Positions 24,395 to 39,679 of a DNA stretch of 64,000 nucleotides are shown piece after piece; the first letter of the stretch is position 1, and each line of letters begins with the position of its first letter. Source of the stretch: a virus; IMG/VR virus record IMGVR_UViG_3300050821_003659, positions 1 through 64,000 of that record; one strand, given 5' to 3'. Under the pieces are notes generated by a model. It was not told where the DNA came from and ran no database searches. It saw only the letters and a program-made list of their open reading frames with translations. The position numbers and the translations under genes were made by a program.

Positions 24395-24461
24395 GTAGAG
24401 GGGAGTGAGGTAAAGCGGCTCCCTACCAGCCCTTGACAGAACACCGCATCTGGGCGATCAT
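24362..24461 (+). promoter_or_regulatory. tandem sigma70-like promoters upstream of the ncRNA block
   Basis: TTGACA-17-TACTGT (24362) and TTGACA-17-GATCAT (24433). Confidence 0.6.
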
Positions 24462-24496
24462 GCCGCTTGGGTCACTCCCAAATTTTAGGAGGAACG

Positions 24497-24739
24497 ATGA
24501 CAGTTTTCGGAGCGATTGTAGCAGCAGTTTTGCGGAAGGCCGAGGCGTTCCTCGCGGAATGCAAGGCCCTCGTCGTGAAGGCCAAGGCGATTGAGAAGAA
24601 TCTCGTCGCGACGGCTGAGCACGATGTGCACGAAGTGATCTTGAAGGCGAAGGAAGACGTGATCGACATCGAGACGAAGGTCGAGAACGAAGTCAAGACT
24701 CTGAAGAACGAGTTGGTTGACAAAATCTCGAAGCTGTAA
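24497..24739 (+). CDS. small amphipathic helical protein
   Basis: AGGAGG RBS, 80 aa. Confidence 0.7.
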   Translation: MTVFGAIVAAVLRKAEAFLAECKALVVKAKAIEKNLVATAEHDVHEVILKAKEDVIDIETKVENEVKTLKNELVDKISKL

Positions 24740-24744
24740 GTTAC

Positions 24745-24893
24745 GGGCACACGCGGTTACGGAACTGGGTGTTCAATCACTCAGATCGCAACCAACGGAG
24801 ACTTTGTCAGAAAAGAACGCACGTGAAACGTCGCGACGAGTAGCGTGCAAGTAATCCGTTGGGAATGGTGGTTCGAGTCCACAGGTGCCCACC
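24745..24893 (+). ncRNA. tRNA-like structured RNA with enlarged internal arms
   Basis: GGGCAC/GTGCCC acceptor-like stem plus ACC, T-arm GTGG-TTCGAGT-CCAC, internal stems CTGGGTG/CACTCAG and CCAACGGA/TCCGTTGG. Confidence 0.55.
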
Positions 24894-25116
24894 GACATTG
24901 AGGTTGCTGATGTGAGAAGGCTAAACTCTGACGTGTAAAATGCGACCGAGCCTTGGAAGTAGGTCGTGTTTCCAAAAAGTTTGACCCCCAATTGATAGGC
25001 AGATACTGTCAGCACGTGAAGTCGTGCGTCGAGCCGCCACGTAAGGGGCGGGGAGATATAGTCATAATGCTGCTGGGTCATTTTGGGCGAGGGGCTTCAC
25101 TCGCCCACCGAATTAC

Positions 25117-25457
25117 GCAAGTATGAAGGCGTTGTTTCCGTTTTCGGACGCGGGTTCGATTCCCGCCGCCTCCACCAAAGATGCTGAATCAGCGACACAG
25201 TGTGCACACGTCGTGTGATTGAGGTTCGTTTAACTCCTCACGATAGAACACGCTTGAGAGGTTCAGCACTTTTGATGGGGGCGTCAAGGCTTCGACGGAG
25301 GCGATGAGATGGCGTTGGACTTGCCGAGGTTGTATGGCTCCTCGTTAAACAGACATGCAAAAACCAAACGCAGAGACTAAACCCCTCGCGATGGCTGCTG
25401 CCGCTGGTCGGTAGAAGTCAGGAGGCTTTGCTCCCACCTTCTCAAATAACGGGAGCA
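25117..25457 (+). ncRNA. ssrA: circularly permuted (two-piece) tmRNA
   Basis: Acceptor piece ends GCGGGTTCGATTCCCGC-CGCCTCC-A-CCA (25177); coding piece starts GGGGGCG (25277); G3-U70 pair; P2 pairings; pk1 CGAGG/CCTCG; tag frame 25370-25414 AETKPLAMAAAAGR*. Confidence 0.9.
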
Positions 25458-25459
25458 CT

Positions 25460-25596
25460 TTCATAGTCGCTCGTGATAGCATGAGGGCGACTGTTCAACC
25501 AGTTCGAACAAACGCACGGCACCTTGAGTACCCGTGCGACCCGTTGTCCCCATCGGATTGTGGCGGGACGTGAATCGTTGAACGAGCGACTATGAA
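25460..25596 (+). ncRNA. unidentified structured RNA closed by a 15-bp perfect stem
   Basis: TTCATAGTCGCTCGT / ACGAGCGACTATGAA plus internal hairpins. Confidence 0.5.
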
Positions 25597-25868: not shown

Positions 25869-26249
25869 ATGGCTGTGAAGAAAAAGCCGAGCAAACGCGT
25901 CACGATGAGAAAACCGAGACAAAATAAGCTGGCACAGGTCGCCGCCGAACTCGCACGCACGAAGATCGAGATCGCGAAGAAGTCAGTTGCGGGGACTGCT
26001 TGGAAGGCACCCGCGATCAACGTCCGTCCTATCGCGGAGCCTCAGGCATTCTGGGTTCGGGCACGCATGATCGAGACGCCGGAAATTGGCTACGGGCCGA
26101 AGACGTTCCTCGCCCGCATACCAGTTACACTCACGACGATCCCTGAACTGCCCGAGGTGGTTCGGATCGCGAATCAGTTTTTTGTGTTGACGACCACGCT
26201 GCCTGTCACGTACAGTCAGAAGCAGTACGCAGAGGCCACAAGACTATGA
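25869..26249 (+). CDS. hypothetical protein
   Basis: AGGAGGAG RBS, basic N-terminus. Confidence 0.7.
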   Translation: MAVKKKPSKRVTMRKPRQNKLAQVAAELARTKIEIAKKSVAGTAWKAPAINVRPIAEPQAFWVRARMIETPEIGYGPKTFLARIPVTLTTIPELPEVVRIANQFFVLTTTLPVTYSQKQYAEATRL

Positions 26250-27172
26250 GCGAAATCTTCATCACTTCCGACGAGCACTATGGGCACGCGAACATCATCC
26301 AGTTCTGCGACCGTCCCTTCGTCTCGACGGAGCAGATGCAGGAGACGATCATCGAGCGGCACAACAAGAAAGTTCCGAACAACAAGCACCACCTCACTAT
26401 CCACGCAGGTGACATGTTCTGGCAGACGATGACTGAGGGAGAAGCCCTCGCCATCCTCACGCGGCTGAACGGTCGGCACGCGTTTCTCTACGGTAATCAC
26501 GACGAGTTGATGGAGCGGTCGCGGCTGCTGCCTGATGCGTTCGAGTGGGTTCGCGGTCGCAACAAAGAGAACACGAGCCACAGCGTTCAGTTCAACAAGC
26601 ATCGCATCGTCATCAGTCACTTCGCTCAGCGAGTCTGGCAGAACAGTCACAAAGGTTCGTGGCACGTGTACGGGCACTCGCACGGTGAGATCGCTGAGTT
26701 GGGCAAGTCGTTCGACATCGGCGTTGACTGTCACAACTTCGAACCGTGGTCGCTTGAAGAGATCGAAGCGAAGATGAGCAAGCTGTCCTCGCATCACGTG
26801 ATCCCTGCGGCGAAGCGGTGGCACCCTTGCAATCCGGCAGAGTCGCAATACTGCGGCGTCTGTCCTGACTGCCTTGCTCACCTCCGCGAGACGGGCACCT
26901 CCCTGATGCCTCGACGCGGCGACGGTGATCCCCTCCCCCTCGGCTCTTTGTACGAGAAGCCGATCATGGGGCACGACGGAAAGACCGCGATAGGCACCAT
27001 CGTCGCGTACGATCCGAGCATCAAGAACGCCAGTGTAGCTCAGACGGTAGAGCAGGGCACCTGTAATGCCAAGGTCGGGGGTTCAAATCCCTCCGCTGGC
27101 TCCACTGTTCACTTCCATCCCGTGGGCGAGACTTGCGGGTTCTGTGCAATGCAGGGAAGGATGGATATATGA
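26246..27172 (+). CDS. calcineurin-like metallophosphoesterase with C-terminal extension
   Basis: SDEHYGH, AGD, YGNHD, SHF, YGHSH, DIGVD motifs. Confidence 0.9.
   Translation: MSEIFITSDEHYGHANIIQFCDRPFVSTEQMQETIIERHNKKVPNNKHHLTIHAGDMFWQTMTEGEALAILTRLNGRHAFLYGNHDELMERSRLLPDAFEWVRGRNKENTSHSVQFNKHRIVISHFAQRVWQNSHKGSWHVYGHSHGEIAELGKSFDIGVDCHNFEPWSLEEIEAKMSKLSSHHVIPAAKRWHPCNPAESQYCGVCPDCLAHLRETGTSLMPRRGDGDPLPLGSLYEKPIMGHDGKTAIGTIVAYDPSIKNASVAQTVEQGTCNAKVGGSNPSAGSTVHFHPVGETCGFCAMQGRMDI
27029..27104 (+). tRNA. tRNA-Thr(TGT), atypical C33, inside a CDS
   Basis: GCCAGTG/CGCTGGC acceptor, GCTC/GAGC D arm, loop CCTGTAA, T loop TTCAAAT, encoded CCA. Confidence 0.8.
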
Positions 27173-37739: not shown

Positions 37740-38129
37740 GTGCTGAGCAAACATCGCAGACAGATGTCACCCGCTGAGATACGATTCGCGGAGACTACGG
37801 TTCACGCAGTGGACACGTGGTGCTTCGACAACGATCACCTGCTACAACGCATGCAGCAGAAGCAGATCAGCAAGAAGGACGCGGTACTCGCTGCGAAGTA
37901 CGGCGAAGTCATCCGCGTTCAAGACGACGGTCGCGTGGTAATGCGGCTGATGCGACCAACGCAGCCGTTCGCGACTGACAAGGTCGGCACCGTCGTTTGC
38001 GTCTCGCTGCTCGACAAGACAATCGTCACCGCATGGCACAATGACCCGAAAGACAATCACATGTCTGCGGGCTTGGATGCGTACACTTGGCAGGTCAACG
38101 TCATCGAATATCTGAGGAGCATACAATGA
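37740..38129 (+). CDS. hypothetical protein (possible RelE/DUF4258-like RNase fold)
   Basis: HLLQRMQQKQI...IVTAW pattern; GGAG RBS. Confidence 0.45.
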   Translation: MLSKHRRQMSPAEIRFAETTVHAVDTWCFDNDHLLQRMQQKQISKKDAVLAAKYGEVIRVQDDGRVVMRLMRPTQPFATDKVGTVVCVSLLDKTIVTAWHNDPKDNHMSAGLDAYTWQVNVIEYLRSIQ

Positions 38130-39679
38130 AAACTTTCATCGAGTTGTTCACCGACGCCCGTGCGGTATCGACGCCGTCAGTCGCTATCAAGACCTTCGAC
38201 GCAACGTCTAGCATCCTCGCTGTGCAGAACAGCATGTCCCCTGAGGAAGCTGAGTTGACGCCGTTCATCACGTGGGACGCGATACACGGTCTGCGTGGTC
38301 TGACTGACGCGGGCACCGAAGCACTCGCTACGATGTGCAACGATGCCAGCGTGCCTGAGGTTGGTATCTCATGCGATCTGCCCACCGCACTCGGCATCCT
38401 CGAACGTGCGAAGCAGGATGTCATCGCCTTCATCCACAATCCACAGTTGGTGTGGAACGAAGCGAAGTCGGTCGTGCAAGGGTACGCGAACCTTCGCAAC
38501 GACTACAAGGCACGCGGCAACATGGTCGTCACACTCTTCGGAGTTGGCGACACGATGCCCATCGAACTCCAGCAAGACACGCTGGTGCTCGAACACCCAC
38601 TGCCCACGCGTGACGAACTCGCGAAGATCGTGCGAGAGACGTACGCGTACGCATACAACAGCGACCCCAAGAAGTACAAGGCGTGCAAGACAGTCGATGA
38701 GACGGTCGTTGCACTCGCGGTCGATGCACTGATCGGTCTGCCAGCGTTCCCTGCTGAGCAGAGCACAGCGATGTGCCTGAACAAAGAGTCTGGCGTGCTC
38801 GACATCGTCACACTCTGGGATCGCAAGAAGACAATCGTCGGACAACGCAAGGGCTTGACCTACCGCACAGGCGGGCTGAAGCTGCACGACCTGTACGGCG
38901 TCGAATCGTTCAAGACCTACGGCAAGCGGCTGATGTCTGGCAGCAAGCCTCCGACAGTCATCCTGAGAATGGACGAGATACAACGTCAACTCTCAGGCAA
39001 CGATACAGACTCAAGCGGCGTCAAGGGTGACCTGCTTGGTGAGTGGCTGACGTGGATCAACGACCACGACATCTACTGCACTCTGCTCCTCGGCGTTCCG
39101 GGCAGCAGCAAGTCACACAGCATCGACTGCATCGCTGGTGAGTACGGCAAGCCTGTGATCGACTACTCGATCTCACGCATGCAAGACTCGCTGGTCGGCA
39201 ACAGCAACAAGAACATGACGGTCGCCAACAGCACCGTGGACTCGATCAGCGACAAGAACGTATGGCTTGTAGCTACGGCGAACAAGCTGGACGGTCTGCC
39301 GCCTGAGTTGCTCTCTCGCTTCGCGGACATCTTCTTCTTCGATGCACCGGACGCGGATGAGTTGGCTGGCATCATGAACCTGAAGCTGGAGGCATACAAA
39401 CTCGACACGACTCAGCCGCATCCTGACATGACGGGCTGGACTGGTCGTGACGTGAAGAACTGTGCTGTGAAAGCACAGCGTATGAACTCCACCGTTGTCG
39501 AGTGCGGCGAGTACATCATCCCACTGATGACATCGCAGAAGGAAGCGATGGACAAGTTGAGGCACGATGCTGCTGACCGCTTCCTCAGTGCTTCGAAGCC
39601 CGGAGTATACAAGTACACCGAGCCGACAGTGAAGCACACCGCGACCGTGAAGATCACGGAAGGTCGCAAGATGCGGTAG
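38126..39679 (+). CDS. Ycf46-like AAA+ ATPase with rearranged Walker motifs
   Basis: TWD..GL N-domain, MDEI, GVPGSSKS, VATAN, LPPELLSRF, WTGRDV; ends KITEGRKMR. Confidence 0.85.
   Translation: MKTFIELFTDARAVSTPSVAIKTFDATSSILAVQNSMSPEEAELTPFITWDAIHGLRGLTDAGTEALATMCNDASVPEVGISCDLPTALGILERAKQDVIAFIHNPQLVWNEAKSVVQGYANLRNDYKARGNMVVTLFGVGDTMPIELQQDTLVLEHPLPTRDELAKIVRETYAYAYNSDPKKYKACKTVDETVVALAVDALIGLPAFPAEQSTAMCLNKESGVLDIVTLWDRKKTIVGQRKGLTYRTGGLKLHDLYGVESFKTYGKRLMSGSKPPTVILRMDEIQRQLSGNDTDSSGVKGDLLGEWLTWINDHDIYCTLLLGVPGSSKSHSIDCIAGEYGKPVIDYSISRMQDSLVGNSNKNMTVANSTVDSISDKNVWLVATANKLDGLPPELLSRFADIFFFDAPDADELAGIMNLKLEAYKLDTTQPHPDMTGWTGRDVKNCAVKAQRMNSTVVECGEYIIPLMTSQKEAMDKLRHDAADRFLSASKPGVYKYTEPTVKHTATVKITEGRKMR

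Follow-up and report, generated by a model that had tools for sequence, protein, structure and literature searches.

A circularly permuted tmRNA gene with a conserved Gly-Arg tag end in a clade of soil phages probably infecting Acidobacteriota

In the usual view of tmRNA, the rescue of stalled ribosomes and the destruction of the tagged proteins are coupled. Tags whose C-terminus is not Ala-Ala, such as ssrA-DD, His-tagged ssrA and the Lon-directed tag of Mycoplasma, escape ClpXP, and rescue is retained. These tags are laboratory constructs or chromosomal, whereas the one described below is natural, phage-borne and long kept. ClpX reads the terminal Ala-Ala of the ssrA tag together with its free carboxylate, and altering either raises KM strongly (PMC7652416). 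Permuted tmRNA genes have been reported from phages: a survey of 18,146 phage genomes by Buchholz et al. (2022, PMC9004378) found 53 such structures, and the tmRNA database holds 79 phage entries. For example, the OM43 phage Melnitz, the pelagimyophages and the Caulobacter phiCbK-like phages resemble the phage studied here in being of virulent type and in having a permuted ssrA without smpB (PMC9004378). Phages with permuted tmRNAs often infect hosts that have a one-piece tmRNA, as do those of Stenotrophomonas, Citrobacter and Pseudomonas (PMC9004378, Table S1), but this set is mostly aquatic and Table S1 gives no tag sequences. The novelty implied by the first-pass annotation of our locus was therefore too high, since permuted tmRNAs of phages were already published; what is new is a conserved and probably ancestral Gly-Arg end in a defined phage clade, for which no counterpart was found in the literature searched, and the link of permuted tmRNAs to Acidobacteriota phages.

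The stretch of DNA analysed (the window) comprises the first 64 kb of an IMG/VR record of 75,961 bp, whose completeness is estimated at 80%. It carries genes for a large terminase, a portal-like protein, a primase-helicase, a family A DNA polymerase, a phosphoesterase and a helicase, together with seven tRNAs. At the DNA level, searches for near-identical and distant relatives of the tmRNA region and the 20 kb around it returned only short T-arm matches among 50,697 phage records. Among proteins, the terminase has its one notable match in that of the Tunturiibacter phage Tunturi_3, with 47% identity across 94% of its length. A tblastn search with all ORFs showed that about 30 genes are shared with this phage in a largely collinear arrangement, including the major head protein (83% identity), the portal (61%), a UvsX-like recombinase (54%), an RNA ligase (45%) and a helicase (43%). 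The order polymerase, tmRNA, phosphoesterase is also common to the two. This kinship, along with the terminase, portal, capsid and polymerase genes, bears out the first-pass claim that the tmRNA is encoded by a phage. The phosphoesterase ORF (26246-27172) runs through a tRNA-Thr gene (27029-27104), and of its 308 residues only 1-183 are covered by Pfam and PHROG matches; the last third of this ORF, on the 3' side, may therefore be non-coding.

Tunturi_3 is a podovirus isolated on a tundra-soil acidobacterium (PMC11924767), and the kinship with it suggests that the host of the window phage is probably a member of the Acidobacteriota. The only sequencing run found to contain the stretch, and a possible source of it, is labelled as a soil metagenome (DNA), with no RNA run among those listed for it, and the relatives likewise come from soil-type metagenome contigs. 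When genome contigs were searched with the PolA alignment, an irrelevant Roseburia MAG was all that came back. Among 2144 genomes of Acidobacteriota, 1589 standard tmRNA genes have been counted, along with 0 alpha-type and 5 beta-type permuted ones (PMC11915505, Supplementary Table 2); if the host assignment holds, the form of the phage tmRNA differs from that of its host. No paper on the tmRNA tags of Acidobacteria was found in the literature.

A single permuted tmRNA was called by ARAGORN in the 64-kb window, at 25085-25505 (+), with the tag AETKPLAMAAAAGR followed by a stop. Rfam also calls a permuted tmRNA, and the tag given by ARAGORN in permuted mode is the same as that read in the first pass. 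RF04321 (tmRNA_permuted, gathering score 47 bits) matches 25117-25402 with 73.7 bits and an E value of 2.9e-12, and its full model (1-213) is covered. When thresholds are relaxed, the standard model RF00023 hits each half on its own and in swapped order, with a 3' half that ends at 25177 and a 5' half that begins at 25277. For RF01849 (alpha_tmRNA) the window lies below the gathering threshold (50 bits), whereas the relative L006 lies above it (72.8 bits). No match to the glutamine riboswitch was found by Rfam in the window. The gene shares with the two-piece ssrA of Caulobacter, and with the models RF01849 and RF04321, the order acceptor piece, spacer, coding piece, and it has in common with alphaproteobacterial tmRNA the G3.U70 pair, the T arm, P2, PK1 and a GCN resume codon. 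It differs in its tag, which exceeds the model consensus by three codons and has GR instead of AA at its end, and in that the gene is phage-borne, not chromosomal. Its parts are as follows.

25085-25116 (+): 5' leader of the ARAGORN call, with the hairpin GGGCGAG...CTCGCCC; limits from ARAGORN, poorly alignable among relatives.
25117-25177 (+): acceptor piece, delimited by the RF04321 alignment and by covariation of the acceptor stem, T stem and P2 in 20 genes.
25117-25122 and 25130-25142 (+): 3' strands of P2, GCAAGT and CGTTGTTTCCGTT respectively, read from the sequence.
25150-25166 (+): T arm, with the stem GCGGG (25150-25154) pairing with CCCGC (25162-25166) and the loop TTCGATT, read from the sequence.
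25167-25177 (+): acceptor 3' strand CGCCTCC (25167-25173), discriminator A (25174) and CCA (25175-25177), read from the sequence.
25178-25276 (+): intervening sequence of 99 nt, in which TGCTGAA (25183-25189) can pair with TTCAGCA (25262-25268), read from the sequence.
25277-25369 (+): 5' part of the coding piece, with the acceptor 5' strand, a GG..TTCGAC element, the 5' strands of P2, PK1 and an A-rich stretch ahead of the resume codon, supported by Rfam and by covariation of P2 and PK1.
25277-25283 (+): acceptor 5' strand GGGGGCG, forming the G3.U70 pair with the CGCCTCC strand.
25294-25306 and 25319-25324 (+): P2 pairings, GACGGAGGCGATG (25294-25306) with CGTTGTTTCCGTT (25130-25142) and ACTTGC (25319-25324) with GCAAGT (25117-25122), read from the sequence.
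25325-25359 (+): PK1, with CGAGG (25325-25329) pairing with CCTCG (25340-25344) and TGTATG (25331-25336) with CATGCA (25354-25359), read from the sequence.
25370-25414 (+): tag frame, with a GCA resume codon, the peptide AETKPLAMAAAAGR and a TAG stop (25412-25414), from ARAGORN and codon-position entropy.
25406-25408 and 25409-25411 (+): codons of the tag cap, GGT for Gly and CGG for Arg.
25413-25456 (+): 3' structured region, a covarying hairpin in which (T)GCTCCC (25430-25435) pairs with GGGAGC(A) (25451-25456) around the loop ACCTTCTCAAATAAC.
25467-25505 (+): terminal hairpin GTCGCTC...GAGGGCGAC, at the end of the ARAGORN call, read from the sequence.

All the sequence elements listed in the first pass were found again, either exactly or within 1-2 bases. 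The tRNA-like domain is complete, with an acceptor stem of 7 bp, the G3.U70 pair, discriminator A, CCA and a T loop of the form TTCGAnT. It is not certain that the leader at 25085-25116 belongs to the mature acceptor piece. The intervening sequence at 25178-25276 is presumed to be removed in maturation. In the relatives this spacer varies from 21 to 137 nt and lacks sequence conservation; in the window the closing helix is present but is statistically not notable, as the spacer folds no better than shuffled sequence (z = -0.96). Downstream of the stop codon, a pseudoknot would be possible between CTTCT of the loop (25438-25442) and AGAAG (25413-25417), noted on visual inspection for the window and L003 only. 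A scan of the locus for promoters and terminators gave nothing decisive, and no terminator-like site was found by it at the terminal hairpin (25467-25505). The approximately 700 nt located 5' of the tmRNA (24395-25084) hold no convincing ORF, and promoter-like sites lie at 24433-24461 and 24912-24941.

The structure was assessed on an alignment of 20 genes, in which the 5' part of the coding piece was joined to the acceptor piece. In all 20 the seven pairs of the acceptor stem are kept. The pairs G1-C, G2-C and G3.U are invariant, and compensatory changes occur at pair 4 (GC, CG, AU), pair 5 (GC, AU, UA) and pair 6 (CG, UA). The five pairs of the T stem are likewise present in every gene, with compensatory changes. 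RNAalifold predicts about 20 pairs in P2, most of them kept in 17-20 of the 20 genes, and compensatory pair types are numerous. Stem 2 of PK1 is 95.4% paired, with two pairs changed on both sides, and its covariation score of 0.404 compares with 0.146 in shuffles (0 of 500 as high) and with at most 0.13 when the partners are slid; the lower score of stem 1 is due to four alignment rows that are one column off register. A pseudoknot finder applied to one sequence at a time could not tell real sequences from shuffled ones, and the alignment-based count was used instead. Finally, at least 16 of the 20 relatives have a hairpin with a stem of 6-8 bp at the same 3' site, with at least 12 different stem sequences around the conserved loop aCCUUGGAACAGAAc. 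The identification as a circularly permuted, two-piece tmRNA made in the first pass thus stands, on the strength of ARAGORN, RF04321 and the covariation of P2 and PK1.

Relatives were collected through the polymerase. Searches with the single sequence and with an alignment gave 14 viral loci on 10 viral contigs and 79 metagenome loci. ARAGORN called permuted tmRNAs directly 3' of the polymerase gene in these relatives, which makes 21 distinct genes with that of the window, two of them nearly identical. The 20 distinct related tmRNA genes that were compared all follow the DNA polymerase gene at a matching position and come from viral and metagenome contigs of soil and peat. The tag of the window is AETKPLAMAAAAGR, and those of the relatives, one per distinct peptide, are listed below.

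AKTNTLAMGAAAGR, AKTNTLAMAAAAGR, ATPKRAFAAAAGR, AETEKPRAFAAAAGR, ATTKPRAMAAAAGR, ATTEKPKAFAAAAGR
ATTEKPLSFSAAAGR, AETEKPKAIAAAAGR, ATTEKPKAFSAAAGR, AEPKPLAMSAAAGR, ATTPVKAMSAAAGR, ATTEKPKAFAAAA
AEKPRAFAAAA, AKTNVKAFAAHA, ATTEKPKAFAAHA, ATKPLTMAAAAGC, ATTEKPKAFAATAGA

One divergent member, at about 8385-8620 of L004, was missed by ARAGORN and scores 49.2 bits with Rfam, barely over the threshold. Its T loop is shortened, CCA is not encoded, the spacer is of about 25 nt, and the tag, read by hand, ends in ...SATAGM; this tmRNA may be decaying. In two other relatives the match to PolA is longer than the 2.1 kb seen in the rest, with about 3.1 kb in L068 (138-3229) and about 2.9 kb in L043 (3283-6150), and the straight translation of L068 contains 16 stops, which suggests that the polymerase gene may hold an intron or an insertion of homing-endonuclease or intein type.

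The tag ends in AAGR in 14 of the 20 distinct tags, that of the window included, so that the Ala-Ala type of end, which is typical of the family and not strictly defining, is absent from the window and from 13 other distinct genes. The part kept as a peptide throughout is the block A(M/F)AAAAGR and not GR alone. Over the last eight sense codons of the 14 GR genes, the summed entropy is 3.33 at the first codon position, 0.59 at the second and 10.29 at the third; Gly is encoded by GGT, GGA or GGG and Arg by CGG, CGC, CGA, CGT or AGG. As variation is concentrated at third codon positions, the tag frame and its Gly-Arg end must have been selected as a peptide, and this comparison shows peptide-level selection of the Gly-Arg end across the clade. 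The non-canonical tag AETKPLAMAAAAGR reported in the first pass is thereby confirmed in both its frame and its Gly-Arg end by conservation in 14 distinct genes. This distribution of variation fits a translated frame kept by purifying selection, and the three-base periodicity rules out an explanation by RNA structure alone, as well as an alternative resume codon that would give a tag ending in AA. The resume codon is GCA, GCT or GCC in all 20 genes. An upstream frame, GCA AAA ACC AAA CGC AGA GAC TAA (AKTKRRD*), was considered and rejected, being unconserved in the relatives, with a periodicity that favours the frame of ARAGORN. Ten of the 14 GR tags stop at TAG, versus TAA in five of the six other tags of the clade. 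Read-through or recoding of TAG was also rejected, given the tandem TAGTAG in two genes and the lack of a suppressor tRNA among the seven tRNAs of the phage.

A maximum likelihood tree of 18 polymerases, rooted at the midpoint, places AAGR in both of its halves, and each deviant tip (AAAA twice, AAHA twice, AAGC and TAGM) has an AAGR sister or close neighbour. With a midpoint root, and with tmRNA genes that could have moved between phages, the simplest reading is that AAGR would be ancestral and was followed by at least five departures at the tips. GR is not essential, since several lineages dropped it. As a control, the first 80 IMG/VR loci listed with the same tRNA-like 3' end yielded 35 tmRNAs with ARAGORN, 16 of them permuted; all 35 tags end in Ala and 29 in Ala-Ala.

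Permuted tmRNAs were also identified in the two cultured Acidobacteriota phages Tunturi_3 (PP885686) and Tunturi_4 (PP885687), which score 63.3 and 79.2 bits with RF04321. The Tunturi_3 gene matches beta_tmRNA best, with 45.6 bits, below the threshold of 84.

L099 about 1387-1756, equal to PP885686.1 88172-88396 (-): tmRNA of Tunturi_3, tag ending in ...MLAA, read by hand.
L098 1410-1944, equal to PP885687.1 43532-43941 (-): tmRNA of Tunturi_4, tag ending in ...AVAA.

Both tags end canonically in AA, in contrast to the GR of the window. The Tunturi paper makes no mention of tmRNA and lists 'unknown' tRNAs (PMC11924767), which may be the tRNA-like domains of the permuted tmRNAs; the presence of these unannotated genes in the two cultured phages is new. 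A small protein with an RF-1 domain (ArfB-like) is encoded in both phages, as gp53 of Tunturi_4 (L096 2619-2966) and gp125 of Tunturi_3 (L102 32469-32807). In Tunturi_4 the gene directly adjoins the tmRNA, whereas the clade of the window has no RF-1-domain gene. Two further unannotated permuted tmRNAs with canonical tags were seen in the Xanthomonas phage Rb1 (L221 743-1171), with ANDDNFRPALRLAA ending in ...RLAA, and in the Stenotrophomonas phage DLP_6 (L222 743-1086), with ANDDSFAPMAIAA ending in ...AIAA. The hosts of these two phages are expected to have a one-piece tmRNA.

A search for SmpB (PF01668) gave no match across the 76-kb record (80% complete) or in five relatives, of which three are 100% complete; the absence of smpB noted in the first pass for the window therefore extends to the record and to three complete relatives, and the phage would have to use the SmpB of its host. 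RF-1/ArfB domains are lacking from the record and from five relatives (three rated 100% complete), ClpP is lacking from the record, and a Pfam search of ten neighbouring ORFs revealed no protease, adaptor or translation factor. The phage does encode an AAA ATPase (38087-39679), which is common to the window and Tunturi_3.

In the mechanism that we propose, a single transcript would be cut by tRNA-processing enzymes of the host into an acceptor piece (about 25117-25177, bearing the CCA end) and a coding piece starting at the G at 25277, the two being held together by the acceptor stem and the P2 helices. The alanyl-tRNA synthetase (AlaRS) of the host would charge the RNA with alanine through the G3.U70 pair, and host SmpB and EF-Tu would carry it into ribosomes stalled on stop-less mRNAs. 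Translation would resume at GCA 25370 and end at TAG 25412, adding a canonical-looking ...A(M/F)AAAA capped by two residues, Gly-Arg. Because readers of the ClpX type need a free Ala-Ala carboxy terminus, the cap should uncouple rescue from degradation of the ClpXP type, and the phage would profit from recycled ribosomes during infection while keeping the tagged proteins from a protease of that type. It is plausible that the Gly-Arg cap blocks recognition by ClpXP; the first-pass proposal, that the GR extension would hide the degron from ClpXP or redirect the tagged proteins, agrees with the described behaviour of ClpX (PMC7652416). From the sequence comparisons, we lean, with some reserve, towards the window gene, in a soil podophage of lytic type, encoding a functional tmRNA that is circularly permuted and in two pieces, with a tag cap that probably uncouples rescue from ClpXP-type degradation. 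More tentatively, and at somewhat less than an even chance, a clade of probable Acidobacteriota phages may have kept an ancestral Gly-Arg cap as an adaptation that uncouples rescue from Ala-Ala-dependent (ClpXP-type) proteolysis, or hands the proteins to another reader. The strict retention of ...AAAA before GR and the repeated returns to AAAA or AAHA are equally compatible with a cap that could matter little.

These same two features would also be expected if AAAAGR itself were a degron or address label, by which another protease or adaptor of the host (Lon, FtsH, ClpAP or one not yet described) or a phage protein would destroy or route the tagged proteins. This reading, which we regard as rather unlikely, is favoured by the conservation of the whole A(M/F)AAAAGR block as a peptide and by the AAA ATPase encoded by the phage, and it would have a precedent in Mycoplasma, whose tags reportedly switched from ClpXP to Lon in the account of Gur and Sauer from 2008. 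However, ClpP was not found in the record, and the ATPase does not track the cap, as it is shared with Tunturi_3, the tag of which ends in LAA. Moreover, we know of no bacterial reader that prefers a C-terminal Arg.

The bias in stop codons bears on a further reading, in which the Gly-Arg codons would serve termination or release on the tmRNA, through the last residues or the P-site tRNA acting on RF1 at UAG, and the fate of the protein would be unaffected or unimportant. The prevalence of TAG after GR, as opposed to TAA in the other tags of the clade, is in its favour, as is the effect that the last two residues have on termination in E. coli. It is nevertheless improbable: Arg is specified by five codons that are read by different tRNAs, so the residue and not the codon or the tRNA is selected, and canonical tags ending in AA-TAA work in the sister phages.

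If the main role of the RNA were that of a decoy, titrating host SmpB or inhibiting trans-translation of the host, like the form of the phage DS6A that consists of the tRNA-like domain only, its tag would be irrelevant. Such tRNA-like-domain-only forms do exist in phages (PMC4131195), and one adjoins the PolA gene in L007, a distant relative (29% PolA identity). This 'mini tmRNA' (L007 5917-5998) is an 82-nt one-piece RNA with no tag frame that abuts the start of the PolA gene and recalls the form of mycobacteriophage DS6A. The decoy role is very improbable for the genes studied here, in 20 of which selection, on the peptide as well as on the structure, preserves the tag frame, PK1 and the resume context. 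Finally, one might suspect a false call by the software, a pseudogene or a piece of host ssrA taken up at a prophage attachment site, as ssrA is often an integration site and tmRNAs are overcalled by ARAGORN (PMC4131195), but this is already contradicted by the completeness of the gene, by its constant place after the polymerase gene in phages with PolA 55-78% identical, by the covariation seen in every helix and by the standard, not permuted, form of tmRNA in Acidobacteriota chromosomes.

The uncoupling of rescue from ClpXP-type degradation thus remains our preferred reading of the cap. A natural Gly-Arg tag that has been conserved for long offers a ready means of testing whether, of the two halves of trans-translation, phages seek just the recycling of ribosomes. 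Two of the clade's tags, ATTEKPKAFAAAA and ATTEKPKAFAAAAGR, differ by the cap alone and would provide natural matched tags for degradation assays, and the recognition of these genes would improve the annotation of soil viromes. As Tunturi_3 is a cultured relative, a tractable experimental system exists. For the Acidobacteriota, a dominant and little-studied soil phylum whose chromosomes have a one-piece tmRNA, the finding means that their phages carry two-piece tmRNAs.
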